This document shows positions 4,995 through 49,300 of a stretch of DNA of 64,000 nucleotides, in pieces. How positions within the stretch are numbered: position 1 is the first letter of the stretch; every line of letters starts with the position of its first letter. Below the pieces are notes generated by a model. The model was not told the DNA's origin and did not search any database. It worked only from the letters and a program-made list of their open reading frames with translations. A program made the position numbers and the translations under genes. The stretch is from a virus. The DNA lies in IMG/VR virus record IMGVR_UViG_3300028800_000071, positions 1 through 64,000 of that record; one strand, 5' to 3'.

Positions 4995-4998
4995 AAAC

Positions 4999-5133
4999 GT
5001 GATTAGGTTTTTCGCCCGCGTGTTTTGCGGGATTTTCGGGCACCGTTACGGCCTCGCGCCGGGGTATCCATCCGCAACAGACGACCGCATTTACGAGTGC
5101 AAGACTTGGGGTTGTCGGGATTGGCACGGATGA
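4999..5133 (+). CDS. 44-aa Cys/His protein
   Basis: VIRFFARVFCGIFGHRY...CKTWGCRDWHG*; occupies the same slot as 2896-3114. Confidence 0.5.
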   Translation: MIRFFARVFCGIFGHRYGLAPGYPSATDDRIYECKTWGCRDWHG

Positions 5134-5659: not shown

Positions 5660-5844
5660 TGCATGAAATGACGCTTCGTTATATTGCGGGATTCTCGCTA
5701 TTGGTAGCGGTTCTGTTGGCGCTATTTTGCCCCGTAATAGCCCAGGCACTATGGATTTTGAAGAAACGTTTGGACGCTCATAGCCTACAAAAAAGCGCAA
5801 GGTATTCTCCACCCAAAGACGACCCGCGCTTGGAGGGCAAATAA
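5659..5844 (+). CDS. small single-TM protein
   Basis: Hydrophobic N-terminal half; flanked by direct repeats CGCTTGGAGGGCAAATAATG. Confidence 0.6.
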   Translation: MHEMTLRYIAGFSLLVAVLLALFCPVIAQALWILKKRLDAHSLQKSARYSPPKDDPRLEGK

Positions 5845-5984
5845 TGGCTGCTGATGAGTTTTGTAATCCGAAGAAGTTTTTATGGTGGACGTACTCGGCC
5901 CACGACTGGCAAGATTTTCAAGGCATGAACTGGGATTTGCCCGGCTATTCCCGCTGTAGACTATGCGGAAAGGAGAGCCGATAA
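5844..5984 (+). CDS. 46-aa Cys/His protein
   Basis: MAADEFCNPKKFLWWTYSAHDW...CRLCGKESR*. Confidence 0.55.
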   Translation: MAADEFCNPKKFLWWTYSAHDWQDFQGMNWDLPGYSRCRLCGKESR

Positions 5985-29342: not shown

Positions 29343-31433
29343 GTGGCCTTTGGAGAGTCGTGGCTGATCTCAGTCATGATGCGATTTACGAGCAACGGCT
29401 CGCGCATTATGAACGAGCTCGGAAACTCGGCGAGCAAGGCTAATGCTATCCTCGATACGCACACCAAGAAGGTCAACGCCGCGACGGCTGCATGGGAGCG
29501 CTTTAGTGTCGCGAGCGTGAAGGCCGGCACCATGTTTGCCGGCGGCTTCGCGGCCACCGGCGCTGCGGCGATCGTCTACGGTATCAATCAGGCGGCGAAG
29601 CTGGAGCTCGCCATGACGGGCGTGTATGCCGCTACGGGCGCCAACCTGCGGCAGCAGTCGCAACTGCGCAACATGGTGATGCAGATCTCGGGCGTGACGG
29701 CGCAATCGGCTACCACGATCGCCAACGAGCTCTTTATGGTTGGCTCGTCTGGCTTGAACGATCCCAAGCAACTAATGGCGGCGTTCCCGCAGATCGCCAA
29801 AGCCGCCGACGTGCTCTGGCTCTCGACGATGGGCACGCCGAAAGCCGTCGATCCCGTACACGCCTCGATGCAAATGATGAAGCTCTCGCATCTGTTCGGC
29901 GCGTATCAAGGCAAACCGTTAGCCGATATGGTCGATGCTATCGTGCGCCTGCAAATGGTGCAACCCGACGCGCTCGCGAAGGTCGTCACGCAGGCGAGGT
30001 ATTTTGTCCCGGCGGCGCTCGGCGCTGGCGTGAGTATCAAGAATCTGCCGCAATCCGATCTCATGGTTCTGATGGCGTCGATGGGCCAGCAGGGCTTCAT
30101 GCAAGGCAAAGGCGGTACGGGCCTCGCGGCGTTCATTCAATACATGGATAAGGCGCCGACGTTGACGGCGCATCTGTCGAAGATTCAGCGCGCCTCAATG
30201 ATCGATCTCGGGCTATTCGACAGCAGCGGCAGAAATAAGTTCCTCGATAGTCACCAAAACCTAAAGCTCGGTGAGGCGGTCCATTATCTCGGCGAAAAGT
30301 TCGACAGCATGGTCAAAGAGGGTCGGCGCGGCGACTTTATGGCCGATCTCTACGGCGCGTTCTTGCGGCAGGGCGGGGCGTTCACCGCGGCGATGCTGCT
30401 TCCGCAAGTCCGTGCGCAACGCCAACGCAACATTCTCGGCATGGAACGGATCGCGCCGCCTGGCACCGCCGTCGAACGGTTGTGGGACAAGTATATGCAC
30501 ACCACGATTGGCGCGTGGAAATACTTCGTCACGAACTTCGAAAACGTGTGGATCTACGGCTTCACGCCGATGCTGCCCACCGTCACCGCCTTCTTGCGCG
30601 GCCTCGGCTACGAGTTCGGGCGCTTCGGCAATACGCTCAAAGATCACCCCGGCATGGCGCAGGCGCTCGCTAATATCCTGATCGGCCTTACGGCGCTCTC
30701 GACCGCGCGCTTCTTGCTCGGTGGCGGCACGTGGCTCTTTACCGTTGCGAGCGGCTTCGGTAAACTCGCGCCGGAACTGAGCCTCACGAGCAAAGCGCTC
30801 ATGACGCTAGACAACTTCGTGCTGGCCGGCATGGGCGCGCGCCTTCTCAAGCTCACGAAGTATTGGTTTGATCTCGATACGGCAGCATTAGCGTCGGCCG
30901 CGCCGATCAATAACGTGGCTGGTGCATTGCGCGCGCTCGCGGCAGCTGGCGGCGCGTTCTTGCTCTCACCGCTCGGCCGACTGATCTCAGCCGGCGGCGG
31001 CATCCTCACCGGCGCGTACATTTCGATGCAGCAACATAGCTCGGCGAAAGCCACGTACGATGCGGTTGCACACAAGTACGGCGCGCACTACGCGAACACG
31101 CTGTTGCACGGCGCACCGGGTTGGAACCTCGATTGGCACGGCCTCCACAAAGGCGGCGGCTCTTACGGCGGTTGGCCGTACAACTATGGTCCGAACGATA
31201 TCCCCGCTGGTGCGCCGCGGCCGCACAACGGGCCGACGCACGTAAGCATGACGAACCATATCGAGATCAAGGTGCCGAAAGGCACGTCCGCCGAGCAGGC
31301 CAAGGAGATCATCAAGATGGCCATGGCCGGTATCCGATCCGAAATGGCGTCTAGCGGAATGCACTTCACCAGCCGCAACGCGCCGCCGGTACTCAATCTC
31401 GATCTCGCTAGTCCGAGCCTCGGCCTTTCGTAA
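29343..31433 (+). CDS. tape measure protein
   Basis: 696 aa, Ala-rich and helical; GFMQGKGGTGL core motif; position. Confidence 0.85.
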   Translation: MAFGESWLISVMMRFTSNGSRIMNELGNSASKANAILDTHTKKVNAATAAWERFSVASVKAGTMFAGGFAATGAAAIVYGINQAAKLELAMTGVYAATGANLRQQSQLRNMVMQISGVTAQSATTIANELFMVGSSGLNDPKQLMAAFPQIAKAADVLWLSTMGTPKAVDPVHASMQMMKLSHLFGAYQGKPLADMVDAIVRLQMVQPDALAKVVTQARYFVPAALGAGVSIKNLPQSDLMVLMASMGQQGFMQGKGGTGLAAFIQYMDKAPTLTAHLSKIQRASMIDLGLFDSSGRNKFLDSHQNLKLGEAVHYLGEKFDSMVKEGRRGDFMADLYGAFLRQGGAFTAAMLLPQVRAQRQRNILGMERIAPPGTAVERLWDKYMHTTIGAWKYFVTNFENVWIYGFTPMLPTVTAFLRGLGYEFGRFGNTLKDHPGMAQALANILIGLTALSTARFLLGGGTWLFTVASGFGKLAPELSLTSKALMTLDNFVLAGMGARLLKLTKYWFDLDTAALASAAPINNVAGALRALAAAGGAFLLSPLGRLISAGGGILTGAYISMQQHSSAKATYDAVAHKYGAHYANTLLHGAPGWNLDWHGLHKGGGSYGGWPYNYGPNDIPAGAPRPHNGPTHVSMTNHIEIKVPKGTSAEQAKEIIKMAMAGIRSEMASSGMHFTSRNAPPVLNLDLASPSLGLS

Positions 31434-34721: not shown

Positions 34722-35180
34722 GTGGCTGGCCTTCCGCAGACGACGAGTAACCCGTTGGCGGCGGTGGAGGTCCTTTTGCCCTACGGCGGCGACTATTCAC
34801 TAACGTCAACCGGCGATCTGCAACTCGTCAAAGACCAACCCGGCAATCCGGCCGCCACGACGCAGCGCATCATCTTCTTGCTGCTCACCAATCCCGGCGA
34901 CGATCTCTTTAACCTCGATTACGGCGCCGGCTGCCGCGCGACCGTTGGCCGACCGAACGTTATGGCGAACGTCGATGCCATCCGGCGCACGATCTCAAGC
35001 GCTCTTGCCAACGACCCGTTCGTCGCGGTGTCGCCGGGACCGACGATCGGCATAACGCTTTCGCCGGATAATCAGAGCGCCATTATTGCGATCTCGTTCT
35101 TTTCGGTGATCGGCCAATACGTATCGTTGCCCGATATATCTCTTTCGCCGAATAGCATCCAAATCGGAGCGGCAGCGTGA
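34722..35180 (+). CDS. baseplate wedge subunit (gp25/W-like)
   Basis: GDYSLTSTGDLQLV, QRIIFLLLTNPGD..DYGAG. Confidence 0.8.
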   Translation: MAGLPQTTSNPLAAVEVLLPYGGDYSLTSTGDLQLVKDQPGNPAATTQRIIFLLLTNPGDDLFNLDYGAGCRATVGRPNVMANVDAIRRTISSALANDPFVAVSPGPTIGITLSPDNQSAIIAISFFSVIGQYVSLPDISLSPNSIQIGAAA

Positions 35181-36382
35181 GCATTCAGAAGTACGGCCTC
35201 CAAGATCTCATCCAACTCATGCTGACGGCGTATGCCGCCAAAGCAAAACAGGAAGCCGACGTCGGCACGGGCTCGCAGTTCGGCCCCATGTATCGCGCGA
35301 TGGCGCTCGCCGAGCAGCTGCTCCAAAACGAAAACGTTTACGTCGAGACCATCCTGCGCCTCGCGGCGATTCAAGATCCTCTGCCGGACGGCACGCCAAA
35401 CCCCGACGTGGATTCATTCGTCAACCCGTTCAACTTCTTTCGCAACGGACCGGGCTATGCGGTCGGCGGCGTCACGGTTTCGATTCCCGCCTCGCTGCCA
35501 ACCGATAAGACGATTCCGGTCGGCTATCTGTTTGGTGCCAATGCCGGCCCGACGTACACCGTCGCGGCTAACGGCCCCGGCTACAACTCCGGCGCGGGCG
35601 GTTACGTCATCCCGGCCGGTCAAACCAGCGTCATCGCGTACGTGCAATGCAACGTGTCGGGGTCGCAAGGCAACGCGCTGCCGAACACGATCACGCAGGT
35701 GCTTTCGGGGCCGAACGGATCGCCTCCCGATCCGACGCTCGCGATCAGCAACGCTTTATTGCTCACCGGCGGCGTCGATTCCGAAGTTGGCCAGCCGCTA
35801 AAGACGCGCTTCGCGCAGTATATTGCCGGCGGCGGCGAAGGCACGCCGACGAGCATCATGGCGGCCGTCGGCCAATCAATGACGGGGATCACGTACAGTT
35901 ACGGCGACTTCGTGATGGGCACCGAAGTGTCGAACGTCTGGACCTTTACGCCGAACACCGACGGATGGTTTACGGTCTGCGTCGATATCATGGGCGCGCC
36001 GGGAACGATCACGCAGGACCAACTCAATACGATCGCCGCGCTGATTCTCAACGATTATCGCGCCGGCGGCATCCATTACGCCGTCGCACCGCCGACGCCG
36101 CTCGACGTGGCTGGTGCCGGTACGGTCGTGCTCGTGCCTGGTGCCGATCCCGGCATCGTCGTGCCGGCGGTCAATGCCGCCTTCATCACGTTCGTCAACA
36201 ACCTCGGGCTCGATCCGCTCGGCGGTCCGATGATCTGCTCGATCATGGCGGCGTACATTGCGCTCTCGCAAGTCCCCGGCGTGCTGCGAATCGACAATCT
36301 CACGCTCAACAGCGGCAACGCCGATATCACCGCCGACTTCGGACAAATCCTGCGGGCCGGCACACCCGGCTTCGCCGCGTAA
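35177..36382 (+). CDS. baseplate J/gp47-like protein
   Basis: GSQGNA, GGVDSE...LKTRF, DYRAGG, VPGV. Confidence 0.85.
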   Translation: MSIQKYGLQDLIQLMLTAYAAKAKQEADVGTGSQFGPMYRAMALAEQLLQNENVYVETILRLAAIQDPLPDGTPNPDVDSFVNPFNFFRNGPGYAVGGVTVSIPASLPTDKTIPVGYLFGANAGPTYTVAANGPGYNSGAGGYVIPAGQTSVIAYVQCNVSGSQGNALPNTITQVLSGPNGSPPDPTLAISNALLLTGGVDSEVGQPLKTRFAQYIAGGGEGTPTSIMAAVGQSMTGITYSYGDFVMGTEVSNVWTFTPNTDGWFTVCVDIMGAPGTITQDQLNTIAALILNDYRAGGIHYAVAPPTPLDVAGAGTVVLVPGADPGIVVPAVNAAFITFVNNLGLDPLGGPMICSIMAAYIALSQVPGVLRIDNLTLNSGNADITADFGQILRAGTPGFAA

Positions 36383-36394
36383 AGGAGAACCTCG

Positions 36395-39046
36395 ATGCTG
36401 CGATTGCTCAAGGCGATCGGACCGGTCGTCGTGTGCGCCGCATTCTTCGCCATGCCGCACGTCGCACGCGCGAACCAAAGCGCGGCGATTACGTACTGCG
36501 CACCGCCGGTCATATTCACGCAAGGCCAAACGATCAACGCCGACCCGTTTAATCAAAACTTCGGCACCGCCTCGACGTGCCCGGCACAGTATGGCGATAT
36601 GTTTAGCGACGGGCCGTTCTACGACCCGACCGTGCCTTTCAGCGGCTCGTCCTTCAACTTCACGATCCCCGCCAATACGTGGGTTGCGCTCGGAGCTCGC
36701 GTGCCGACCAGCGCGTCGGCGCTCGTGGCACCAGCAAGCGCGACGAGCTATTGGTGGCTCTCGCGCACCGGCCTCTGGACGTGTACGCTCGACACCGGCC
36801 CGCCGACGAATGCGTGCCCCGGCTTCAATCTTCCCGATACGACCTACGTTTCCGAATACACCATTGCGGCCAACGGCAGCGGCATCACGGCGATTACGCT
36901 CCCGACGATCGCCGGAATCAAGTTCAACGGCACCGTCGCGCTCACGAGCTTCCCGTCGGGATCTTGCTTGCAAACCACGACAGGCGGCGTCCTTACGGCG
37001 ACCGGCCTGCCGTGCGGCAGCGGCGGCAGCGGCATCGCGAGCGTTACGGGCAGCGGCAATATCAACGCCGTCACGGTCTCGGGCGCCGTCATGGTAAGCG
37101 AAGCGAGCTCGCCGACCTGGACCGGCACGCCGACGACGGCGAGCGCCACGCAGGCCGGTTCGTTCAACTTCGGCAGCGATGGCGCGGCCTCGCTCGCGCG
37201 CACCGGCGCGAGCGCCTTCGCGTTCACGGCGGTCGGCCCGGCAACGCTCTCGGTGCCCGGCGGCGTACTGAGCGGCTCGTCGATCTACGGACCCACCTCC
37301 GCTTTCCTCAACGGCGGCCTCACAGCGAGCGCCGTGACCGATTCCGGGCTCTCGGTCGGCCAATGCGTCCAGACGACGACAGGCGGCCTTCTGGCCACCA
37401 CGGGCGCAGCCTGCGCGGGGCTCGGGAACGTGCTCTCGGTGGCGGCCGGCGGCAGCGGCAACGTGACGTGCTCGCCCACGACCGGCAACGTGATCTGCGA
37501 TACGGTCAATAACCCAACGTTTTCGGGCGCCGTCGTGGCCTCGTCGTTCACCGGCTCGGGCGCCGGCCTCACGTCGGGCACGGTGCCGAACGTCGCGCTC
37601 GTAACGCCTGCGGTCACGAGCGTCACCGGGACTTCGCCGATCGCCAGCAGCGGCGGCACGACCCCGGCGATCTCGATCGCGAGCAACCCCGCGCTCTCAG
37701 GCACCGTAACGGGCACGTCGTTCCGCGCCACCGCGGCGATCGTCGCCGGGTCGGCCTCGGCCTTCTTGCCCTCCAATAACGATCTCTCGGCCTCAGAAAC
37801 CACGACCTGCGGCGCGATCTACCTCGGCGGCTCGAGCGATAAGGGCAAACTCGACTACGGCTGCACGAGCGGATCGACGTTCACGTTTGGCACGAATACG
37901 ACCGTCGGCGGCACGCTCGCCGCGACGACGCTCAAAGGCACGACCCTTACCTCGGGCAACTGTGTGCAAGCGACGACCGGCGGCGTTCTGATCACGACCA
38001 GCAGCGCGTGCGGCTCGGCAACCTCCGTGACGTCCGTGGTCGGCACGTCGCCCGTCGGCGTCACGACTTCGGTTGGCGTTGCGACCGTAACGTGTACGAC
38101 GTGCCTCACCGGCTTGACGGCCGGCTCGAATATCTCCGTCGGTAGCGGCACGACGCCATCGGTTGCAGTCGCCTCGTCGCCCACGTTCTCGGGACAGATC
38201 GGCGCGGACGGCAACGCAGCGCCTGCTGCGGGCATTGCGCTCGGCGCGACGACGACGCCGGCAACGATCACCTCTGGCGTAAGTCTGTCGGCAGCGTTCG
38301 CCTTCAAAGATATCTCGGCGAATTGCGGCACGGGATTCATCGAGTTCGTCAAAGGCGCCTCAACGGTGATCTCGCGCATTGATTGCACCGGCAACTATCT
38401 CATGGGATCGTCATCGTACGGTACGAACGCCACGATCGCAGGTTCCTTGAGCGCAGGCACGACGATCTCGGGCGGCAACATTCAAGATAGCGGCTTGGGA
38501 TCGACCGTCACGCCGATCTGCGGAAACAATGCGGCAGCGATCGCGCCGTGCGGCCAACTGACGCCTATGTTTGCGACGACCGGCAACGCAACGAAAGCCA
38601 GCGGCACGTCGGCCAATACGTTGCAGCAACTCGGCGCGTCGGCCCCGTCGTTGACGCTCGGCACAAGCGCCGGCCCCAACGGGCAATGGCTCGTCAAGGC
38701 GCATCTGCTCATTCGTGGCGCATCGGGTTCGACTAGCGAATATCTGTACGGTTGCCTTTCGAATACGATTAGCGGCGGATCAATCACGCCTCAGCAGAAT
38801 TCCGCCGACGAGATCGGCACGACGTGTTGGGCAACGCCGGGAACGGGCTCCGTTCTCGCCGGCACCGTCGGCTTCGGTCAAACGTCGTCGGCCGGCAATC
38901 AGCAATACGGGTTAGACGCGACCGCCGAGGCGATCTTCCTCGCACCGAATGGAGCAACGATCACGATCTATCCGTGGATCGGCGCATCGACCAACGCGAG
39001 CGTGAACGTGAGTGGAGCGCTCTCGGTCGAGGCTGATCCCTACTAA
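36395..39046 (+). CDS. 883-aa Ser/Thr/Gly-rich fibre-like protein with Sec signal peptide and Cys-pair repeats
   Basis: MLRLLKAIGPVVVCAAFFAMPHVARA|NQ; three C[LV]Q[TA]TTGG[VL]LxxTxxxC repeats; AAGGAG RBS. Confidence 0.75.
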   Translation: MLRLLKAIGPVVVCAAFFAMPHVARANQSAAITYCAPPVIFTQGQTINADPFNQNFGTASTCPAQYGDMFSDGPFYDPTVPFSGSSFNFTIPANTWVALGARVPTSASALVAPASATSYWWLSRTGLWTCTLDTGPPTNACPGFNLPDTTYVSEYTIAANGSGITAITLPTIAGIKFNGTVALTSFPSGSCLQTTTGGVLTATGLPCGSGGSGIASVTGSGNINAVTVSGAVMVSEASSPTWTGTPTTASATQAGSFNFGSDGAASLARTGASAFAFTAVGPATLSVPGGVLSGSSIYGPTSAFLNGGLTASAVTDSGLSVGQCVQTTTGGLLATTGAACAGLGNVLSVAAGGSGNVTCSPTTGNVICDTVNNPTFSGAVVASSFTGSGAGLTSGTVPNVALVTPAVTSVTGTSPIASSGGTTPAISIASNPALSGTVTGTSFRATAAIVAGSASAFLPSNNDLSASETTTCGAIYLGGSSDKGKLDYGCTSGSTFTFGTNTTVGGTLAATTLKGTTLTSGNCVQATTGGVLITTSSACGSATSVTSVVGTSPVGVTTSVGVATVTCTTCLTGLTAGSNISVGSGTTPSVAVASSPTFSGQIGADGNAAPAAGIALGATTTPATITSGVSLSAAFAFKDISANCGTGFIEFVKGASTVISRIDCTGNYLMGSSSYGTNATIAGSLSAGTTISGGNIQDSGLGSTVTPICGNNAAAIAPCGQLTPMFATTGNATKASGTSANTLQQLGASAPSLTLGTSAGPNGQWLVKAHLLIRGASGSTSEYLYGCLSNTISGGSITPQQNSADEIGTTCWATPGTGSVLAGTVGFGQTSSAGNQQYGLDATAEAIFLAPNGATITIYPWIGASTNASVNVSGALSVEADPY

Positions 39047-40206
39047 TGACGATCGGAACGTCGCAACTTGGCGGCGGCACCTTTGGTGGTGGCGGTATCT
39101 TTGGCGGCACCGCTGCGCAACTGCTCGCATTCCTGGACGAAACGGGCTCCAATCCGTTACCGGCCGGGATCTACGTGCAAATATACGCCGGGTCGATCGA
39201 CGGGCTGCTCGGTGCGCCGCCGATCGCCGCTGGCTGGACGCAGCCAGGCGGGCTTTGCAATGTTCCCGTACAGCCCGGCAATCTGATCACGTGCGTCTTT
39301 TCATTGTCGTCGCAAGCGCCCCCGAATCCCGTAGAGATTACGCCCGACGGGAACGGTCCGGTTTACACCGTGACGGTGGCACCCTACCGATCTCCGTCGC
39401 TGTCGGACAGCGGATACGCGGCGCTGCTTACTTCGAAACTGCCCAGAGGGTGGTTTAGCGGCGCGGCATTAGCCGATGAACCAGGCGACGGTTCCCCGAG
39501 CGGCATTGCGTACGCGATCGCCTACGCGATCGGTGCGGCGCTTGCGGCGCTTGATCAAGGACAGACGCAGGTCAACCTTGGTCGAGCGCGTCTTGGTCCG
39601 AGCGTCGGCGCCGATATCGACAGTTGGTCGACGGATATGGTCGGCCCGACGTTCGGCCGATATCCTCAAGAATCTGATGCGCTGTTTATCTCGCGCAATA
39701 TGCTCATGGTTTCGCGGCCGCGCTGCTCAATCAACGCGTTGCAAAAGTTCGTGACGCAGTTCTATGCGTCGATCTTGGCAGGTTGGAACGTAACGGGCTC
39801 CGAAGCGCTCGGCTTCGATACGGCGGGCGGCTTCGAAGTATCGGGCGCATTCAATAATCCGCCGGCCCCATCCGTTCCTAAAAATCCGCCGCCCGTAACG
39901 GTGTGGGACGGCATGACGCAACCGGCTCTGGCTGCGGCGCTCGGCGTCACGCCGTTGCAGTTCGTCATTATGGTCGGCCTATTCAGTACGAGTCTCGTCG
40001 AACAACTCGGCTTCAACGTCGCTGGTGCCCTCGGTGGCGGCCCGCACGGCGCGTCGCCCGGCTCGGGCGGATTCAGTAATGAAGTCACAAACGACACGCT
40101 GCCAAGCCCGACGCGCCAGGCGCCAGACCCGCGACTCGGCACGATGATCAATCTCATCACCAAAGGCACCGGCACCGTACCCCTATATCTCATCGGTCAA
40201 CTCTGA
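39046..40206 (+). CDS. baseplate wedge protein (gp48/I-like) with N-terminal extension
   Basis: LPRGWF, ARLG..GADIDSWSTD..G...RYPQESDALFISR. Confidence 0.7.
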   Translation: MTIGTSQLGGGTFGGGGIFGGTAAQLLAFLDETGSNPLPAGIYVQIYAGSIDGLLGAPPIAAGWTQPGGLCNVPVQPGNLITCVFSLSSQAPPNPVEITPDGNGPVYTVTVAPYRSPSLSDSGYAALLTSKLPRGWFSGAALADEPGDGSPSGIAYAIAYAIGAALAALDQGQTQVNLGRARLGPSVGADIDSWSTDMVGPTFGRYPQESDALFISRNMLMVSRPRCSINALQKFVTQFYASILAGWNVTGSEALGFDTAGGFEVSGAFNNPPAPSVPKNPPPVTVWDGMTQPALAAALGVTPLQFVIMVGLFSTSLVEQLGFNVAGALGGGPHGASPGSGGFSNEVTNDTLPSPTRQAPDPRLGTMINLITKGTGTVPLYLIGQL

Positions 40207-40216
40207 GGAGCTCAAC

Positions 40217-41560
40217 GTGAAGAAGTTTGCATCTGCGATCGCCGCGCTCGCGCTCGCGCTCTCGCCGTTCGTGGCGCAAGCGACGCAAGTCACCGTGCAG
40301 CCTGCGCCGACGGCGCGCGTCATGGTGTACGCCGGCCAAAACCCCGACACCAACGAAACCAACCTGATCCCGCGCTTTCAGCGGCTTGCCGACGGCACGA
40401 TGCTGCGCGATATTCTCTCGACGCTCGGCACGTCTGGCGCGTGGTCGAACATTGCGATTCGGCCAGGCTCGGGCCTCAACGTCACGATCAACCCGTATCC
40501 GAATACGTCGCAACTCGGCGCGGTCTATCAGATCGGTCAGAACGACGTGACGGCGCTGCCGCCGCCGCCAGGTCAATCTCCGAATCAGATCCCGGCAGAT
40601 TCGACCAATATCATCATTCAGGCAACGCAGAACGTGCAGAGCAATCCGCTCGGCCCGTTAAGCGCGCCTAGTGGCGCGGGCAACGGCATCTATTACATGG
40701 TCGAGGCGCAACTGAGTTCGATCGACACACAGAACCAATCCATGCTCTTTGTGTCGTCGAGCGGCATCACGAACTATCAGAACGTCAATACGCAACGCCA
40801 AGACATCATCACCTATAAGCTAAACCCGGGCGGGCCAGGCACGGCCGATTGCAGCACGACGTTCCCGACGCCGCCTGCGGTGGATAGCGGTTGGATTGAG
40901 ATCGGCTTGGTCTGCATCCCGCACGCCTTGACGCAGATCACCACGGCCAATATCGCCATGTTCCTCGGGACGAACTTCAACGGTTCGTCCTTTGCGCAAT
41001 TGAACTTCGGCGGCGCCTACGTAACGGGCGGTTGCCAAGGTACGGCGACCAACTGCGGCCCTTCGACGCTCTCCACGTCGCAGAACAGCGGGTGCGATCT
41101 CAATAACGAGCTCGGGTTCGTGATCAATAACAACGCGAATACGAATAACGGGAACCACGTGCTCGTGGCCGATCTGGCCGGCGATCTGGGCGTCTGCGGC
41201 AGCGAGCTCCATATCTTCAATCAGAACTCGAACTCGACGGCCGCCAAGATCATCGTCAATACGTCCGTCGATAAAGGCACGGCCACGGACGAAACGCTGT
41301 ATCCGGCCAATAACACCGCGACCTTGGTGACGAATTCCAACTGCGCCAACGCCACGATCTGCCAAAGCGCAGCGGAAAAGGATATCTGCGCTCAGTCCGG
41401 CGCGGCGTCAACGGCGATGATTACGCCGAATGGCGATTCCGCGATGGCGGTGACGAGCGCGCCCACGTCGGGGACCGGCGTACGTGTAGAGTTTTACAAC
41501 GTGAGCGGTAGCTCGATCTCGAGCCCGCACACGTTTAACTTTACCTATACGTGCTTCTGA
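40217..41560 (+). CDS. tail-fibre-type protein with Sec signal peptide and Cys-rich C-terminus
   Basis: MKKFASAIAALALALSPFVAQA|TQ; occupies the fibre slot after the wedge gene; P.VDSGWIEIGLV.I....TQITTANI baseplate-proximal pattern. Confidence 0.7.
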   Translation: MKKFASAIAALALALSPFVAQATQVTVQPAPTARVMVYAGQNPDTNETNLIPRFQRLADGTMLRDILSTLGTSGAWSNIAIRPGSGLNVTINPYPNTSQLGAVYQIGQNDVTALPPPPGQSPNQIPADSTNIIIQATQNVQSNPLGPLSAPSGAGNGIYYMVEAQLSSIDTQNQSMLFVSSSGITNYQNVNTQRQDIITYKLNPGGPGTADCSTTFPTPPAVDSGWIEIGLVCIPHALTQITTANIAMFLGTNFNGSSFAQLNFGGAYVTGGCQGTATNCGPSTLSTSQNSGCDLNNELGFVINNNANTNNGNHVLVADLAGDLGVCGSELHIFNQNSNSTAAKIIVNTSVDKGTATDETLYPANNTATLVTNSNCANATICQSAAEKDICAQSGAASTAMITPNGDSAMAVTSAPTSGTGVRVEFYNVSGSSISSPHTFNFTYTCF

Positions 41561-41856
41561 GGTTCAAACGCGTCGATCATTCGCCGCGCCGATAGAACGA
41601 AGAAGCAGGCAGCGGCCAAGCCAAACTCGGGCGCCCATGAGGCGAGCACCACGCAGATCCCCGCCATCGCGGAGTTACGAATGACGCCGGTCAATCGCTC
41701 CGCGAGCTCGTAGAACGCGGCGTTCGGCTGCTCGATGATCGGAGTGACGTTGCGGAGATCCCGGGCCGGCAGCGCGTCGGCGAACTCGGGGTGCTCGATC
41801 GCGATCATCACCTGTACGTGAGGCGGAAGATCAAGGAAGTGGATGCTGCGCCGCAT
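41545..41856 (-). CDS. small membrane protein on the opposite strand
   Basis: ATG 41856; two hydrophobic C-terminal stretches. Confidence 0.5.
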   Translation of the reverse strand: MRRSIHFLDLPPHVQVMIAIEHPEFADALPARDLRNVTPIIEQPNAAFYELAERLTGVIRNSAMAGICVVLASWAPEFGLAAACFFVLSARRMIDAFEPQKHV

Positions 41857-41879
41857 TTGAGGGGGCAAGTATAGCACGA

Positions 41880-42140
41880 ATGACCCCGCAGGGCTATCGG
41901 AACCGGCTCGCGTGCATAGAGTGGCACGTGAACTTCTGGCTGCAATCGGGAACCGATTACGACCAATGCCAGCGTACCTTACACCACCTTCAAGAATGCC
42001 TCGACGCGGACTTCTACGGCGAAGCGCGCCCAGAGGCGCCCGATTCCATTACACTAGTATTAATTGACTATTTGGACCGGGAGTTTTCCGGCCCGACCGT
42101 CGAACGGGATGGTTGGGGAGCGCTCGTTTCGTTTGAATGA
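41880..42140 (+). CDS. hypothetical protein
   Basis: ORF divergent from 41545-41856. Confidence 0.5.
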   Translation: MTPQGYRNRLACIEWHVNFWLQSGTDYDQCQRTLHHLQECLDADFYGEARPEAPDSITLVLIDYLDREFSGPTVERDGWGALVSFE

Positions 42141-42191
42141 GGAGCGAGTTACCGAGGCGAACCCACAACGTCGTGCGCAAGGATTCTGACC

Positions 42192-42512
42192 GTGCCATCT
42201 TGGGAACGCGAGATCTCGGACTTGTGGGCGGCGTTATTCGTCCCCGCGAGCGCCGTCATCGGCACGATCGGCGTCATTCTGCTCGCCCTCACCCGCTTCA
42301 AGGACAAGCGGATGGAAGGGGCGCTCGAAGCGAGCACGACCTGGCGCGAGCTCGCACAAAGCCGCGAGGCCACCAATGTCGATCTCGAACGCAAGGCCGT
42401 GTCGAGAGATCGGTACATTCAGCGGCTCGAACGGCAAAACTCATTCCTTTGGGATCAACTTGCGCCCGAGAAGCGAGAGGAGGTTTCTCGCAAATGGAAC
42501 TTACGCGAATAG
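42192..42512 (+). CDS. TM plus coiled-coil protein, holin- or spanin-like
   Basis: One TM then heptads; lysis region. Confidence 0.5.
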   Translation: MPSWEREISDLWAALFVPASAVIGTIGVILLALTRFKDKRMEGALEASTTWRELAQSREATNVDLERKAVSRDRYIQRLERQNSFLWDQLAPEKREEVSRKWNLRE

Positions 42513-42519
42513 GTGCCGT

Positions 42520-42921
42520 ATGATTAACACGCTTCCGAACACCCTGTGGGCTCTCTCTGTTTGTAGCTTCATTGCGATCTATGCGATCGTGCTCGGCTTT
42601 GCGTGGGGGAAAATCAGCCGGCGGTTTTTGTTCCGCCGATTCGCCGATCACTATACGCAGTTCGACGTGACGTGCGTCGGCATCGGAACATTACTCACCC
42701 TCATTCTTTTTGAGTGGGGCGTTCGCGCGCCGTTCGTATTTTTCGTTTTCGGTCACGTGACGATCGGCGGGTGGTGGGTTCAAATCTGGATCGTCTGCTT
42801 CGCTGCCGGCACAATGTTTGGCTACAGTAAACGCAAGCGCGAGGACAACAACCTCCTCAACGACGGCGCCATTACGTTCTGCCCCCATCCTAACTGTCCA
42901 GCACTAAAAGGAGATCACTAG
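42520..42921 (+). CDS. multi-TM membrane protein, holin candidate
   Basis: Three to four hydrophobic segments upstream of the endolysins. Confidence 0.55.
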   Translation: MINTLPNTLWALSVCSFIAIYAIVLGFAWGKISRRFLFRRFADHYTQFDVTCVGIGTLLTLILFEWGVRAPFVFFVFGHVTIGGWWVQIWIVCFAAGTMFGYSKRKREDNNLLNDGAITFCPHPNCPALKGDH

Positions 42922-43301
42922 TGAAGCAAATCCTCGCCGTTGCGATGCTCATGCTCGCGGCGGCACCCGTGTCTGCGGCAACGCCGCCACCGAATGCCGC
43001 GCCGGCGAGCGCGCCAATCCAAAATGCACCGAACGGTGTCAAGCCAAGTCCGCAGCCGTTATGGGCGCTCGTGAAAACCGTGCAAGACAACGACGCCGCC
43101 GTAACGCGCGACTACAATCTTTTTGTCATGCACTATCAGACGTTCGGCGCCTCGGTCTATGCACCGTGGTGCGTCAACGCGGGCGGCGTCCTCACCGTGA
43201 AGCTCGCCAAAGCGTGGGCTGCATGGCCGGCAACCGTGTGGTGCCATAAGGACGATCCGAAAGGGCCAGGGCGTTCCGCCACGGCGCCGGTGGTCAAATG
43301 A
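42921..43301 (+). CDS. secreted protein with Pro/Ala linker
   Basis: MKQILAVAMLMLAAAPVSA signal; two Cys. Confidence 0.65.
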   Translation: MKQILAVAMLMLAAAPVSAATPPPNAAPASAPIQNAPNGVKPSPQPLWALVKTVQDNDAAVTRDYNLFVMHYQTFGASVYAPWCVNAGGVLTVKLAKAWAAWPATVWCHKDDPKGPGRSATAPVVK

Positions 43302-44029
43302 TCGCCACCCATCATTGGTCCGGCTCGCGCGCCGTTCGCGGCCGCAACTATCATATCGAGAACGCGCGTACGGGCATCATCGACGACGCCTATCGCCATC
43401 TGCTGCGCGCCGCATGGATCACCGACGACGGCGCCAAGTCGGTAGACTTCCATAAACTCAAATCGCTGTTCATCGTCTACAAGAACGATTCGCTCACGGA
43501 AACGACCGAGTTCGGGACCTGGGATCTCAATAGCGATCCGCGCAACGGCACGCCGAATATCGAGATCGCCTCGCTCTGTATGCCGGGCGGCGCGACGGAC
43601 TTCGAGGGCGTCGAACCATTCACGATCGCGCACGCATGGGTTCACGCCTACGAAACCGCGGCGATCTGCCTGCTCAAAGGTCAAGACCCGCAGGAGTTCT
43701 TCAACGCAAACGTCGCGCCGCAACTGCAAAACGGACCGATCTTCGTTTTTAGTACGCACGGCGAGCGTGCGATTCAGACCAAGAACTACAACGTGCCTGG
43801 CGCCGGCGCATCGTCGGAAGCCGTGTCTGAGGAATATGGCTACTTCTTCGGCAGCGGTGATTCTGATTCGCGCGCCGATCTATTCTGCCTCGACGGCGCG
43901 TGGTACAACGGCAAAGTCACCGAGGACCAATGCCGATCGAGCGCGGCAGCGATCCGCCATCACGCGCTCATGATCATCCAGCACGGGCTCGTGAAAGACT
44001 TCTGGGGGCTCGACGGCCCCGAGAGCTAA
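43298..44029 (+). CDS. divergent N-acetylmuramoyl-L-alanine amidase (endolysin)
   Basis: HHWSG...NYH, IEIASLCM.G, THGE resemble Amidase_2 phage lysins. Confidence 0.55.
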   Translation: MIATHHWSGSRAVRGRNYHIENARTGIIDDAYRHLLRAAWITDDGAKSVDFHKLKSLFIVYKNDSLTETTEFGTWDLNSDPRNGTPNIEIASLCMPGGATDFEGVEPFTIAHAWVHAYETAAICLLKGQDPQEFFNANVAPQLQNGPIFVFSTHGERAIQTKNYNVPGAGASSEAVSEEYGYFFGSGDSDSRADLFCLDGAWYNGKVTEDQCRSSAAAIRHHALMIIQHGLVKDFWGLDGPES

Positions 44030-44078
44030 AGCGCAACGAGGGCGAGCAATCGCCCTCGCTTCTTTCCCCGAAGGTGTC

Positions 44079-44891
44079 ATGGACAATCACGTCGTCGATA
44101 TCTGCCTCGCGATCTTCGCTTTGTCGATGGTCGCGCTTGCCGTTATTCCGCACCCCGAAGGTACGCCGATCCCATCGGCGCCGCTCACGAAGCCGCTCTC
44201 AAAGACGGCCGCGGTCGTGCTCAAATACAATAACGAGCATCCATTCTTCAGTAAGGCGCCCGTGTGGACCGAACCGGCGCCCGGCGTAACGATTCACAAG
44301 ATCCCGCCGAGCACGGCGCAAGAAGAAGCCGACGTCGCCGAAGCCGCGAGCGTGCGCGAGAAGTATCCGCTCACGATGATCTTCGCTGCGCTCGGCGTCG
44401 AGAGCGTGCTCGATCCGCTTTGCGAAAACCACAACGCCGCGCCGGGCGAAAGCAACGAAGGCAATAAGTTCGGGCCGGCCGGTTGGGATATGGGGCTTGG
44501 ACAGTTCAAACTCGGAATTCTGGCCAAGGCGCTCGGCATCACGCTCGCGCAGGCACAGGAGCTCGCGTTCACGATCAAATGGGCGATCGACTATCACGTC
44601 GCCGTGATGAAGAAGGAAGTCGCCTGGGCCAATACGGTCATTGCGCAAAACCAAGGCAACTCGAACGTCGATTATCGCTTTCGCGATCCGTATCTACTCG
44701 CGACGTGCTCGTACAACTACGGCCGCAACGGCGTGCTCGAACAGTATTATTACAAAGGCACGTTTCCCGACGGCGGCAAGAACCCCGATGGTACTCCGCG
44801 CAAGAATCACGGCGCGTCGGTCATGAGTGACGAAGCCTACTTTGCCAAGCAACTCGGCGTAACGTCGATCTTCGCCTATCTCAAGGCGTAG
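44079..44891 (+). CDS. lytic transglycosylase with N-terminal signal or anchor
   Basis: GVES catalytic Glu, MGLGQF, SYNYG (SLT motifs I-III). Confidence 0.75.
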   Translation: MDNHVVDICLAIFALSMVALAVIPHPEGTPIPSAPLTKPLSKTAAVVLKYNNEHPFFSKAPVWTEPAPGVTIHKIPPSTAQEEADVAEAASVREKYPLTMIFAALGVESVLDPLCENHNAAPGESNEGNKFGPAGWDMGLGQFKLGILAKALGITLAQAQELAFTIKWAIDYHVAVMKKEVAWANTVIAQNQGNSNVDYRFRDPYLLATCSYNYGRNGVLEQYYYKGTFPDGGKNPDGTPRKNHGASVMSDEAYFAKQLGVTSIFAYLKA

Positions 44892-44903
44892 GAGGATCAT
44901 TGC

Positions 44904-45059
44904 ATGGATTCCGATTCTGGCGGTGGCGCAAAAGGGTCCGTCGCCGCTTCAGACAGCCTCGATGCCGTCGTGATTCACAAAGACGGCAGCACGACCCAAA
45001 CTCAGCTAACGGGCGTTAAAAAAATCATCGCCTGGTTCAAAGGATGGTTCACGTCATGA
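44904..45059 (+). CDS. 51-aa protein (not in the ORF track)
   Basis: AGGAGG RBS; MDSDSGGG...LDAVVIHKDGSTT...IIAWFKGWFTS*; ATGA overlap with the next gene. Confidence 0.6.
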   Translation: MDSDSGGGAKGSVAASDSLDAVVIHKDGSTTQTQLTGVKKIIAWFKGWFTS

Positions 45060-45991
45060 AAAAACTGCTCGGTGCAGTTCTGCTCACGGCGCTCGCGCTC
45101 GCAGGCTGCTCTCACGGAACAACGCATCACCCGGGCCTCGCGCCGGGAAAGATGCGTGCGCACAGTTCGCTCGTTCACAAGGTTGACCTTAAGGCCGGCA
45201 AGCCGCAAGAGCACGCCGTAATCGATCTGCGCAAACACCAGCCGACGGTATTCCTCGGTAGCGGCGTCAACTTCGGCCATATCATGGCCTATCACTATCG
45301 TCACCATCGTCTGATCGGCGTTCACGATCTCGGGTTCGGGACCGTGACGAACGTCGGCGTAATGGCCATGGCCAACGACTTTGCGTGGGCCGGCCCGTCG
45401 GGTGCGCCGATCAATACGCTCGCGCTCTGCAAGTTCATGGCGACAGGTACGGGCACAACCGCCTCGGCCTCAACGGATATCGCGTTGCAGACCGCCGACG
45501 GTGTTGCCTCAGTCACCGGCACGCAGTCGCTCGTGAGCGCGGCCAACTCCCAAGCCTATAAGGTCGTCGGAACCCAAAACTATACGGGCACCGAGGCCGT
45601 CACGGAATGGGGACTCTTTGCGAACGGCACGCTTTCGGCGAGCACAGGCACGCCGTTTACCGCCGGATCGGCGACGAGCGGAACCGTAACAGGCACACCG
45701 CTTACGGCATCGTCGACGACGGCTCAAGGCGAGCAACAGTTCATCTTCCAAGATACGACCAAATCGCCGAAGATCTACGGCTTGGTGACGAGCAACACCA
45801 CGTCGGTCGTGACCGTTCCGGCGTGGTACAAATCCACCGACGGCACCGCTGCCGGCACAACGCCGGCCAACGCCGATGCGTTGACGATTCTCCCGGTGAT
45901 GCTCGACCATATCGTCTTTTCGGCGATCAACGTCATCAATGGCGACTCGATTCAGTTTACGTTCACGTTGACGTTGCCTTCGGGCTCGTAA
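45056..45991 (+). CDS. virion-type beta protein with lipoprotein signal peptide
   Basis: MKKLLGAVLLTALALAG|C; body VTNVG..ATGTGTT..DIALQ..VTEWGLF..FSAINVINGDSIQFT resembles phage minor tail proteins. Confidence 0.7.
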   Translation: MKKLLGAVLLTALALAGCSHGTTHHPGLAPGKMRAHSSLVHKVDLKAGKPQEHAVIDLRKHQPTVFLGSGVNFGHIMAYHYRHHRLIGVHDLGFGTVTNVGVMAMANDFAWAGPSGAPINTLALCKFMATGTGTTASASTDIALQTADGVASVTGTQSLVSAANSQAYKVVGTQNYTGTEAVTEWGLFANGTLSASTGTPFTAGSATSGTVTGTPLTASSTTAQGEQQFIFQDTTKSPKIYGLVTSNTTSVVTVPAWYKSTDGTAAGTTPANADALTILPVMLDHIVFSAINVINGDSIQFTFTLTLPSGS

Positions 45992-46015: not shown

Positions 46016-49000
46016 ATGGCGATCTCGTTCGTCCAAGCCGCTCAAGGCGCGGGGTTCGGCGTCGTTCTCGGTGCGGCTCCCGTGAAAGGCAACCTCTTAC
46101 TCGCCGTTGCGGTCAATAACGGCTCGACGCCGACAGCCAATACGGGCTGGACGAGCATCGACACCCTCAACCTCACGCAAGACGGCATTTCGCTCTATAA
46201 GATCGCTGGTGCGGCCGAACTCTCGACGCAGACGCCGATCGCCGGCACGTCGAGCAACGTTTCGGTCTACGAGTTCCACGCCGATCGCGGCTTTGCGGCC
46301 AATCCGGTCGATGACCATTCCGTGCGCCAAGGCGCACCGGCTACGCCGCCGACGTGCGTTTCTAACGGCGTAAACCCGACCAAGCCGATCAACGGAATGC
46401 TGGCGGTGTTTTACTCTACGTCGAGCGCCGATACGGCGCCGACGGCTGTTTCGGGCATGACCGTGCAACTCACGTTGAGCGGCGGCGCGACCGGCAACGG
46501 CGTCGGCTGTTATCAGATCGGCGTCAACGGCGAACACGTCACAAAAACAGCGACGTGGACCGGCTCAACGAGCGCATCATCGTGCGCCTTTATCATCGTC
46601 TTTTACGAGCAGACGGAAGTCACGCTCGTGCAAGCCGCGACGGCCGTCGGCACCGGCGTCACGTTCGGATCTGCGCCGACGCAAGGCAATCTGCTCGTCG
46701 CCGTCTGCTTCAATAGCGGCACGCCGGCGCTCGGCACAGGCTGGACGAATATCGACAATCAGGCGAGTTCGCCCAATAGTCGATCTATGTATAAGATCGC
46801 CGGGGCCGGCGAATCGACGACACAAAGTCCGACAAGTACGGCGACGAGTACGCTCATGGTCGCCGAGTTCAACGCCGTGAGCGGACCATTTACGGCAGCG
46901 AATCTCGACGTACATGGCGTGACGCGCGTTGCGACGGCAAATCCACCGAGCGTCACGTCCGGTGCTCTTACGCCATCGAAGGTCAACGACTTCGCCATCG
47001 TTGTCGCGTGCGATGCCGGTACGGCCGACGCTGCGCCGACGGCGATCACCGGCATGGTCACGCTCGTTGATATGCCAGGCACCGGCGGCAACGTCGGTAT
47101 CGGCTTTGCGGCGTGGACGGTCAATACGGGCACGGGTTCGTTTACGAAAACCGTCACGTGGGGTAGCGGCACAACGTCGGCGAGCGCCGTTCACGTCATG
47201 ATCTTTACGGTGCCGGGCTATACTTCAACGCCGTCGGGATCTGTGACGGGCGCGGGGGCCGCCAATCGCGCCGATAAGGCGGTGCGCACCGGCAGCATCA
47301 CGGGAGCCAGCGCGCTCTCGCGGGCGATCGCTCATGGTCTGACGGCCTCGATCACGGCCGTGAGCTCCGCGCTCCGATTCGTCGCAAAGATATTGCCCGG
47401 CGCGTCGATGACGCCGACCGGCACGGCGACAAAGCAGGCGCAACTGCCGGTTGCAGGCAGCGTCACGGGTGCAAGCTCGTTCGTGCGCGCAACCTTTGCA
47501 CAACTCGCTGGAAGCGAAACGCCGGCCGGAACGTTCGTGCGTTTCATTCAGCGCGTGCTCACGACGGGCTCGATCACGGGTGCCGGCGCCGCTTCAAAGC
47601 AGACGCAGGTGCCGGTGGCCGGGTCCGTCACGGGCTCGACTTCGATGCTGCACGCCATCGGCGCGCTACTCAGCGGCAGCGTCACGGGCGCGACCGGATT
47701 CGTTCGCTCGACGTTCCGTAAACTCACCGGCAGCGAGACCCCCGCCGGCGCGGCTACGCGTGCGATCGCGCGCGCCTTTACTGCGGCGAGCATCACGGCA
47801 AGCTCGGCTCTGGCCACCGGCAAAGCCTTCGTGCGATCCTTGACGAGTTCGATCACGGGCACGACCGGCTTCGTTCGCTCGACGTTCCGCAAGCTCACCG
47901 GCAGCGAAACGCCAGCCGGCGCGGCTGCGCGTGCGATCGCGCGCGCGTTCACGGCAGCGAGCATTACAGCCACGTCGGCGCTGGCCACCAGCAAGTCTTT
48001 CCTCCGATCATTCACGGGTTCGATCACGGGCTCGAGTTCGATGCTACACGCCATCGGTGCGCTTCTCAGCGGCAGCGTCACGGGCACGAGCTCGATGAAC
48101 CGCTCGATCGGCGCGAAGCTCACCGGAAGCATCACGGATGCCGGGACGTTCATCCGATCGACCGTCGCGAAACTTACGGGCAGCGAAACTCCCGCCGGTG
48201 TCGTCGCGCGCGCGATCGCCCGCACCTTCGCCGCGGCGAGCATCACGGCGAGCTCGGCTCTGGCCACCGGCAAGGCGTTCGTTCGATCGTTCACCGGCTC
48301 GATCACCCCGGCCGGCTCGATCAATCGGTTCACGACGGCGCTGATCTCGGGCAGCGAGGCCGCTACGTCGTCGCTCAACCGCTTCACGGCGCGTCTTGAG
48401 GCCGGGAGCATTACCGGGGCCGGCACGGCTCACAAATCGACCGGAACGGTCGAAAGCGGCAGCATCACGGATGCCGGGGCGATCGGCAAGCAGACGAAGG
48501 TGCCCGTGGCGGGCAGCGTCACGAGCTCGGGAACGCTCAGGCGCTCGATCTTCGCCTTGCTCGCGGCCAGCATCACGGCGGCCAGCGCGATCCGGCGCGC
48601 GTCGACCAGGGCGCTCGTCGCCCAGGTTACGCCGCAGGGCGGGCTCGCCCGGGCGATCGGCGCGGCGCTCGCGAGTGCCAGCATTACGGCACAGTCGCTG
48701 CTTACGTCCAATCGTGCCATCATCCGCAACTTCACGGCGTCGATCGCGCCGAGCGGGACGATCGGCAAAGCCGTCAGCGCGCTACTGAGCGGCAACGTGG
48801 CGCCGGCGACACACCTCCTTCGCTCGACGGTCGTACAGTTCGGCGGCCAGATCACCGCAACGGCCGGCATCGTCCGTACGACGGTGCTCAATATCGCCGG
48901 CAGCATCGCGGCCGCTGGCACCATTGCTCGTGGCCGTATCAAGAACTTCACCGGCTCAATCACCGGGCAAGGCGTGCTCGCCGACCGCAAGGCGATCAAC

Positions 49001-49300
49001 GTCATCTTCAACGCCGTGCTTGCGCCGCAGGGCACGATACGTCGGTCGATCCGCAAGGCGTTCGCGGCCGTCATTGCGGCCGTCGGGTCGCTTCGCAATC
49101 TGTTCTATCACGCGCCGCCGGCCATCGTGCTCGATATTGCGATCATCGCGCCGACGGAGATCAGCGCCTCGATTCTCGCGCCGACGGTGATCGGCGCACC
49201 GATTCTCGCGCCGACGACAATCAGCGCACCGATTCTCGCGCCGACGATGCTTGAGCTCGATATTCCCGGCGCCATCATTCTGTCGGTTTCGGGGGACTAA
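46016..49300 (+). CDS. 1094-aa repetitive fibre-like structural protein
   Basis: Two tandem N-terminal domains (VQAA..FG..P..GNLL..GWT.ID..YKIAGA), many approximately 19-aa GS[IV]T repeats, C-terminal I[IL]APT x4. Confidence 0.75.
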   Translation: MAISFVQAAQGAGFGVVLGAAPVKGNLLLAVAVNNGSTPTANTGWTSIDTLNLTQDGISLYKIAGAAELSTQTPIAGTSSNVSVYEFHADRGFAANPVDDHSVRQGAPATPPTCVSNGVNPTKPINGMLAVFYSTSSADTAPTAVSGMTVQLTLSGGATGNGVGCYQIGVNGEHVTKTATWTGSTSASSCAFIIVFYEQTEVTLVQAATAVGTGVTFGSAPTQGNLLVAVCFNSGTPALGTGWTNIDNQASSPNSRSMYKIAGAGESTTQSPTSTATSTLMVAEFNAVSGPFTAANLDVHGVTRVATANPPSVTSGALTPSKVNDFAIVVACDAGTADAAPTAITGMVTLVDMPGTGGNVGIGFAAWTVNTGTGSFTKTVTWGSGTTSASAVHVMIFTVPGYTSTPSGSVTGAGAANRADKAVRTGSITGASALSRAIAHGLTASITAVSSALRFVAKILPGASMTPTGTATKQAQLPVAGSVTGASSFVRATFAQLAGSETPAGTFVRFIQRVLTTGSITGAGAASKQTQVPVAGSVTGSTSMLHAIGALLSGSVTGATGFVRSTFRKLTGSETPAGAATRAIARAFTAASITASSALATGKAFVRSLTSSITGTTGFVRSTFRKLTGSETPAGAAARAIARAFTAASITATSALATSKSFLRSFTGSITGSSSMLHAIGALLSGSVTGTSSMNRSIGAKLTGSITDAGTFIRSTVAKLTGSETPAGVVARAIARTFAAASITASSALATGKAFVRSFTGSITPAGSINRFTTALISGSEAATSSLNRFTARLEAGSITGAGTAHKSTGTVESGSITDAGAIGKQTKVPVAGSVTSSGTLRRSIFALLAASITAASAIRRASTRALVAQVTPQGGLARAIGAALASASITAQSLLTSNRAIIRNFTASIAPSGTIGKAVSALLSGNVAPATHLLRSTVVQFGGQITATAGIVRTTVLNIAGSIAAAGTIARGRIKNFTGSITGQGVLADRKAINVIFNAVLAPQGTIRRSIRKAFAAVIAAVGSLRNLFYHAPPAIVLDIAIIAPTEISASILAPTVIGAPILAPTTISAPILAPTMLELDIPGAIILSVSGD

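Follow-up and report, generated by a model that had tools for sequence, protein, structure and literature searches.

According to the textbook account, tailed phages are assembled wholly in the reducing cytoplasm of their hosts, and in contractile-tailed phages of the P2/Mu type the genes at the tail tip stand in the order W-J-I-fibre-chaperone. To our knowledge, P2/Mu-type fibres have no signal peptide and few cysteines. Some small phage proteins of about 60-200 amino acids (aa), namely T5 Llp, phi80/N15 Cor and lambda Lom and Bor, do carry a signal peptide or lipobox and act in the host envelope; their genes lie in or beside the tail-fibre region. Here we describe an uncultured soil phage with a contractile tail, represented by the first 64 kb (hereafter the window, 64,000 nucleotides) of the 80,795-bp virus record IMGVR_UViG_3300028800_000071 (G+C ~60%). 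Its sequence occurs in rhizosphere metagenome runs, two of which may be its source, and no RNA run was listed among those containing it. Two candidate fibre genes of this phage, encoding proteins of 883 and 447 aa, and a third gene encoding a 311-aa putative lipoprotein begin with predicted export signals.

The nearest published analogue, by likeness of design and not by family membership, is the mosaic adhesive trimer (MAT) fibres of Bdellovibrio bacteriovorus, phage-fibre-like trimers that this diderm exports and displays (Caulton et al. 2024, PMC10769870). MAT fibres combine a signal peptide, a conserved post-signal domain of ~130 aa and swapped tips, and some of them have a Peptidase_S74 domain and some have disulfides (PMC10769870). 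They are encoded by chromosomal genes of a predatory bacterium and lie outside any virus particle, whereas the genes described here are located in a phage baseplate operon. The solved MAT fragments gave no PDB-sequence match from the proteins of this locus. The likeness to P2/Mu is that gp25-like and J-like genes are followed by genes for large modular proteins, conserved at the N-terminus and variable at the C-terminus; the differences are the extra 883-aa gene between J and the next gene and the lack of a recognised chaperone gene. With Llp, Cor, Lom and Bor the proteins share a signal or lipobox and a location in the tail-fibre region, but those small proteins have neither a fibre-like build nor a virion-type fold, whereas the proteins here measure 311-883 aa and one is predicted to fold like a tail part.

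Our literature searches found no description of Sec signals on tailed-phage fibres. Signal peptides have been reported on Porphyromonas phage genes, but no tail parts were mentioned (Matrishin et al.). For the 883-aa and 447-aa proteins, export with oxidative folding is highly probable, judging by their signals, their cysteines and the machinery encoded by the probable host.

Signals and fibre-type build of the 883-aa and 447-aa proteins

Coordinates refer to the window. Genes from the tail module to ~50 kb all lie on the + strand, a 110-aa open reading frame (ORF) being the one exception, and the gene features given below for this region are on that strand. The 883-aa gene (36395-39046) starts with an ATG at 36395, 12 nucleotides (nt) past the stop codon of the J gene (36380-36382), and a GGAG ribosome-binding site (36384-36387) is located 7 nt before it. 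Its predicted Sec-type signal peptide of 26 aa (36395-36472) has two basic residues near the start, followed by a hydrophobic core, and ends with A-R-A before NQS. The 447-aa gene (40217-41560) starts with a GTG at 40217, preceded at 6 nt by a GAGGAG ribosome-binding site (40205-40210). The predicted Sec-type signal peptide, 22 aa in length (40217-40282), again has two basic residues near the start and ends with A-Q-A before TQ. These calls rest on n/h/c-region and -3/-1 rules of our own and on comparison with homologues. Both proteins show the basic n-region, the uncharged h-region of ~10-16 residues and the small residues at -3 and -1 of Sec/signal peptidase I substrates, as do all seven sequences of the 883 family and most of the 11 homologues in the 447 family.

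Seven sequences of the 883 family were aligned, comprising five close homologues, the copy in the IMG/VR contig L001 and the window's own. The 447 family comprised 11 homologues besides the window's own record, ten of them at 42-56% identity and the most distant at 35%. A signal of 21-26 aa ending in A-x-A was found in 7/7 aligned members of the 883 family, and four distant relatives (E 1e-12 to 1e-23) likewise start with signals. In the 447 family a signal was present in 10/10 full-length homologues (11/11 with the window's record); one more homologue is a fragment. The grammar of the signals is constant across homologues, with a basic start, a hydrophobic core of 10-16 residues, a Pro/Gly turn and A-x-A. 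Mean pairwise identity in the signal versus the first 120 mature columns was 0.37 versus 0.55 and 0.44 versus 0.50 for the two families. As identity is lower in the signal than in the start of the mature protein, the segment seems to be kept for its physical properties and not for its sequence.

If translation began downstream of the hydrophobic segment, the signals would be start-codon artefacts. The 883-aa ORF does contain an internal Met20, and GTG codons occur near the cleavage site of the 447-aa protein. Set against this are the strong ribosome-binding sites before the annotated starts and their absence before the internal codons, as well as the presence of the signal segment in every full-length homologue. 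Met20 is replaced by Ala in the homologues, and in both families the conserved mature sequence starts directly at the predicted cleavage site, which together argue that there is no conserved internal start for a signal-less form. An artefact of this kind is hardly credible. The preliminary description of this DNA had claimed signals on the 883-aa, 447-aa and 311-aa proteins and had held that those of the first two were not the product of wrong start calls, and on both points our analysis agrees with it. A signal-less isoform made from a conserved internal start was considered and rejected on the evidence of both family alignments, and no signal-less paralogue of these genes was found elsewhere in the phage genome. 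Export by the Tat pathway was also rejected: the S/T-R-R-x-F-L-K motif is absent, the signals in the window have no RR, and two homologues have an RR without the motif. The predicted first mature residue is often Gln or Asn (A before QVT in most 447-type proteins and A before NQS in 883-type proteins), which is reminiscent of a Gln rule described for substrates of signal peptidase I in Bacteroidetes.

The mature parts of the two proteins are built like phage fibres. In the 883 family, the N-terminal ~560 aa of the protein are conserved and the remainder is swapped or variable (mature protein at 36473-39046). For the 447-aa protein (mature part 40283-41560), the N-terminal ~250 aa recur in Eremiobacterota genomes joined to other C-termini. 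Between the two genes lies that of a 386-aa protein without a signal (39046-40206), whose start overlaps the stop of the 883-aa gene and which is syntenic in L001 and in the Eremiobacterota genome G203. The order J, signal-bearing protein, 386-aa homologue, signal-bearing protein is kept in L001. The genes follow baseplate genes and encode proteins with a conserved N-terminus and a variable C-terminus, as expected of fibre or receptor-binding genes. All homologues found have a phage or prophage setting. Among the distant relatives, one has modules in common with both families and, at its end, Peptidase_S74, a self-cleaving chaperone domain known from phage fibres and spikes. Neighbours in the ESM Atlas, identified by language model and structure, were nearly all viral fibre or receptor-binding clusters, with scores of 0.79-0.89 that fall below 0.9 and make them leads only. 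From gene position, the N- and C-terminal build, the S74 relative and these weak language-model neighbours, we infer that the 883-aa and 447-aa proteins are tail fibres. An AlphaFold2 (AF2) model of the 447-aa protein, built from 12 sequences, had a predicted local distance difference test score (pLDDT) of 44, too low for a usable fold. No match for the 883-aa or the 311-aa protein was obtained with tblastn against 50,697 phage records.

Paired cysteines and the probable host

The mature 883-aa and 447-aa proteins contain 22 and 10 cysteines, respectively. Consecutive cysteines are spaced 3-55 residues apart in the two proteins, and the N-terminal part of the 883-aa protein has repeated C-x15-C motifs. 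The seven aligned members of the 883 family have 22, 22, 22, 30, 36, 26 and 32 mature cysteines and the four distant relatives 18, 20, 20 and 30, so that the count is even in 11/11. Counts in the 447 family are 10 for the window's protein and 8, 8, 8, 10, 10, 8, 8, 12, 12, 10 and 14 for the others. Even counts were found in 22/23 sequences over a range of 8-36, and the only odd count (9) belongs to a stored cluster representative that is a variant of the window's 447-aa protein. Five of the 10 cysteines of the 447-aa protein are invariant and a sixth, Cys446, is nearly so; in the same alignment, lineage-specific insertions bring two cysteines each. As read from the alignments, cysteines are gained and lost two at a time in both signal-bearing families.

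Signal-less families from the same loci provided the control. The 386-aa family had 5 even and 9 odd counts (0.72% Cys) and the 1094-aa family, encoded further downstream, had 4 even and 9 odd counts (0.37% Cys). Overall cysteine content was 2.3-2.5% in the two signal-bearing families versus 0.4-0.7% in three signal-less neighbour families. The regular pairing of cysteines that had been noted in the preliminary description is borne out by the even counts, by insertions that carry cysteines in pairs and by controls without parity. The cysteines are conserved, they come and go in pairs, and the proxy host genome described below encodes an oxidising system, a profile consistent with disulfide-bonded proteins. 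Parity provides strong, if indirect, support for disulfide bonding, and together with the signals it indicates folding outside the cytoplasm.

Even cysteine counts would fit oxidation after release of the phage as well. The proteins might not be exported at all, their N-termini being helices that go unused late in infection or stay uncleaved, with assembly in the cytoplasm and disulfides formed only in the oxidising soil. Such a course would match the standard assembly route of tailed phages, but it leaves the retention of a full signal grammar in every homologue, despite drift of the sequence, hard to explain if the export machinery does not read it. A hydrophobic segment of this type on a nascent chain is normally targeted to Sec. 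We consider non-export improbable.

The host of the phage is probably a member of the Eremiobacterota. Homologues of the 883-aa protein occur at two places on the 3.15-Mb chromosome of a Candidatus Eremiobacteraeota metagenome-assembled genome (MAG), and the 447-aa family is present in 5/301 sampled Eremiobacterota genomes. G203 brings together homologues of J and of the 386-aa protein with a longer protein that has the 447-type N-terminal module, and this prophage copy of the 447-type protein starts with a Sec signal of its own (MRRVL..., ending A-R-A). In the MAG used as proxy for the host there are genes for Omp85/BamA, VKOR, two DSBA-family proteins, Lgt and LspA; none was found for DsbB, Thioredoxin_4 or LolA. 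This gene content makes it likely that the host is a diderm, that it possesses a periplasm and an oxidising system and that it processes lipoproteins.

Two loci in the MAG OY970335.1 (L002 and L003), ~1 Mb apart, have near-identical copies of an odd, compact arrangement that runs from the large terminase through a 162-aa gene, a signal-bearing fibre-like gene of 1451/1452 aa and the tape measure to a 436-aa tail protein. Head and baseplate genes are missing in between, and the arrangement may reflect a reduced element, a satellite or an error of assembly.

The putatively lipid-anchored 311-aa protein and the surrounding late genes

For the 311-aa gene (45056-45991), the ATG at 45056 is the preferred start, with GGATGG 9-11 nt upstream. 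It gives a predicted lipoprotein signal (45056-45109) that reads MKKLL...LALAG before Cys18, with the lipobox L-A-G-C; an alternative ATG upstream, at 45044, would retain the signal. The end of the signal agrees with the pattern [LVI][ASTVI][GAS]C, and Lgt and LspA, as noted, are encoded by the proxy host. The closest relatives (P0025, P0028, P0046, P0101 and L007) have a lipobox or a Sec signal. A HMMER search returned 335 cluster representatives matching residues ~70-311 at E<=1e-3, most of them without a signal. The signal-less relatives start with a conserved segment, R-x-P-x-x-G-R ... D-x-G-x-A, and in the lipobox clade a signal and a His-rich linker stand in its place. In a tree of the shared domain, the window's clade (support 99 in the Shimodaira-Hasegawa-like approximate likelihood-ratio test, SH-aLRT) unites members with a lipobox or Sec signal and a single signal-less one on a long branch. 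The clade lies nested within a wider group of signal-less members, and two further signal-bearing members are placed elsewhere in the tree. Such scatter argues for two or three gains of a signal at the least. By this phylogenetic evidence, the lipoprotein signal is a derived add-on. The preliminary description had proposed that alignment with homologues would reveal the signals as add-ons; this holds for the lipoprotein and not for the 883-aa and 447-aa families, for which no signal-less relative was found.

The linker (45110-45262) is rich in His (H-x-x-x-H-H, H-Y-R-H-H), a feature common to the signal-bearing clade and not to the signal-less family. It might serve in metal binding or pH sensing.

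The C-terminal domain (residues ~70-311, 45263-45991) is beta-rich. An AF2 model of the lipoprotein had a mean pLDDT of 84 and exceeded 90 over this domain. Structural alignment with VIA-align matched it to the Haloferax tailed virus 1 (HFTV1) tail domain 9h4p_BD (Z 11.4, 133 residues, root-mean-square deviation (rmsd) 3.6, 21% identity) and to the fibre-tail adaptor 8jou_a of Ralstonia phage GP4 (Z 8.2, 113 residues, rmsd 3.1), Z values of 8-11 being only moderately above the background of that search. Further likeness was found to baseplate parts of phi812 and KP1 and to phiKZ gp139. Matches in BFVD were labelled tail fibre or tail-collar fibre (E 1e-6), short members of the family match phrog_5417, and a Foldseek search of the PDB with the model returned nothing at E<=0.001. 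At the level of the predicted fold, the earlier designation of this protein as minor-tail-like is thus supported by the VIA-align and BFVD matches to tail parts. The GP4 adaptor and the HFTV1 domain are cytoplasm-made virion parts without signals, whereas here a lipobox and a His-rich linker precede the domain. By sequence and model, this is a virion-type adaptor domain whose customary N-terminus has given way to a lipid anchor.

Directly downstream, a signal-less repetitive protein of 1094 aa is encoded at 46016-49300, with repeats of ~18-19 aa and tandem repeats in the DNA. A homologue of this protein lies within a few kb downstream of a member of the 311-aa family in 17/36 IMG/VR loci, and among the 17 paired loci a lipobox was found only in L007. 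The pairing in many loci, mostly without a lipobox, suggests that the 311/1094 pair is normally signal-less and that the anchor is derived in this lineage. Neither the 311-aa nor the 1094-aa protein had a usable match in Pfam, PHROGs or NCBIfam, and sequence and profile searches of the PDB gave nothing for the alignments of the 447-aa and 883-aa families, for two further alignments (A4 and A7) or for the 1094-aa protein. Repeats in the 1094-aa family are of the L-x-A-x-L-S-F-x-G type, and one member has a Laminin_G_3 domain.

A tail module of the contractile-tailed type precedes the 883-aa gene. It includes a tape measure protein (29343-31433; several PHROG tape-measure families), followed by a gpU-like protein (weak match) and two proteins without assignment. 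Next to the 883-aa gene are a gp25/gpW-like baseplate protein (34722-35180; GPW_gp25 weak, phrog_120 E 5e-5) and a baseplate J-like protein (35177-36382; Pfam Baseplate_J E 2.5e-12, phrog_6 E 3.8e-24), both without a signal. A probable lysis cassette, read from the translations, is located between the fibre-type genes and the lipoprotein gene (42376-44891). Its predicted products are a membrane protein with several passes, a secreted protein of 126 aa, a 243-aa protein and one of 270 aa that has a membrane anchor at its N-terminus. No usable match for the 126-, 243- and 270-aa proteins or the rest of the cassette was obtained in Pfam, PHROGs or NCBIfam. The 126-aa gene (42921-43301) is a fourth late signal-bearing gene, absent from the preliminary description; its predicted signal ends V-S-A before ATPP, it has two conserved cysteines, and it is also present in L001. 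When all ORFs of the genome were scanned crudely, export-type N-termini were found in these four late genes, in two genes beyond the window and in one doubtful ORF. The two genes beyond the window are at 66116-66496 (126 aa, Sec-type signal) and 68911-69843 (lipobox I-A-G-C after an internal Met). A direct repeat of 1,004 bp with 99.9% identity links window positions 4950-5953 with the very end of the contig (genome positions 79792-80795). A simple overlap of the ends does not account for it; the repeat is a genuine duplication or else results from assembly at the end of the contig.

Proposed assembly route and significance

We propose that the 883-aa and 447-aa proteins would be tail-fibre-type host-recognition proteins, made late from the baseplate operon. 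Sec would carry them across the inner membrane, signal peptidase I would cut after ARA and AQA, and host DsbA/VKOR would fold them in the periplasm with about 11 disulfide bonds in the 883-aa and 5 in the 447-aa protein. The particle would be built without them in the cytoplasm; the fibres would not reach it until lysis breaches the inner membrane, and would then dock through their conserved N-terminal domains. The 311-aa protein, a tail-adaptor-type domain with a lipid anchor for its usual N-terminal segment, would stay tethered in the envelope. That the proteins are exported and cleaved, form disulfides and belong to the virion, and when they attach to it, are conclusions drawn from sequence. 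The entire chain, from export through to attachment to virions, is plausible, if short of probable. The inference of export and oxidative folding in the preliminary description stands as far as the build of the proteins goes (signals, cysteines and host machinery) and does not extend to virion membership or to the choice of route.

It is quite possible that the proteins are exported and are not virion parts, being fibre-like surface proteins kept in the envelope of the infected or lysogenic cell. They might mask receptors, exclude superinfecting phages in the manner of T5 Llp/Cor-type proteins, or act as adhesins like the MAT fibres. The lipoprotein might then be a membrane docking adaptor, and the virion would adsorb by another protein, for example the 1094-aa protein. 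An envelope role poses no topological problem, and it would suit a lipoprotein clade that has exchanged its conserved N-terminal segment for a lipid anchor, as well as the repeated, independent gain of signals in the 311-aa family. MAT fibres are a working surface design of signal peptide, conserved N-terminal domain and variable tip, and the 1094-aa protein is a signal-less, conserved partner of the adaptor-like family in many phages. However, the 883-aa and 447-aa genes are placed inside the baseplate operon, the former translationally coupled to the 386-aa gene, and not in a lysogeny or moron position. There is no signal-less paralogue that could serve as the virion copy, and the homologues come from phages and prophages throughout. 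Known exclusion proteins are small, whereas those considered here have 447-1452 aa and show fibre-like modular turnover. The two readings are close in probability: the operon position, the 883/386 coupling, the modular turnover and the lack of a signal-less copy speak for the fibre reading, and the lipid anchor of the adaptor-like protein and the signal-less 1094-aa candidate for the envelope reading.

Several points weigh against fibre addition at lysis. In the literature searched there is no described precedent for periplasmic fibres joining a particle built in the cytoplasm. No match in Pfam, PHROG, NCBIfam or PDB sequences marks the 883-aa or the 447-aa protein as a fibre. The 386-aa protein, called a wedge gene in the preliminary description, likewise had no match in Pfam, PHROG, NCBIfam or PDB sequences, either as a single sequence or as a 14-sequence profile (Tail_P2_I included); its sole label is a bare precomputed PF27728, and its assignment as a wedge protein of the P2 gpI/Mu gp48 type was not confirmed. 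In G203, other genes, with no obvious signal, occupy the place between J and the 386-aa homologue, so the slot after J is variable. The link to the host depends on prophage homologues in Eremiobacterota genomes that share 23-57% identity. It is unlikely that a lipid-anchored protein would leave the membrane for the virion, and an envelope role is indicated for at least the 311-aa protein. Finally, the signal-less 1094-aa protein could be the real fibre.

A mixed picture, with the anchored 311-aa protein holding exported fibres at the membrane, is possible. We regard as doubtful, on present evidence, the broader proposal of a branch of tailed-phage assembly outside the cytoplasm, in which fibres would be Sec-exported, disulfide-linked, perhaps kept at the membrane through an adaptor-like protein with a lipid anchor, and added at lysis.

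The locus adds a link to the Eremiobacterota, a cysteine-parity test with controls from the same locus, and an adaptor domain with a lipid anchor. If periplasmic folding and addition at lysis are true, fibre genes of many soil phages would have been missed or misread as genes for host surface proteins. Engineering of host range and heterologous production of such fibres would then need an export and disulfide route, and particle maturation would come to include the timing of lysis. Should the proteins remain in the envelope instead, they would represent a new class of large, fibre-derived, phage-encoded surface proteins. With its probable host, the locus offers a first look at the phages of the Eremiobacterota, a phylum with almost no cultured members.

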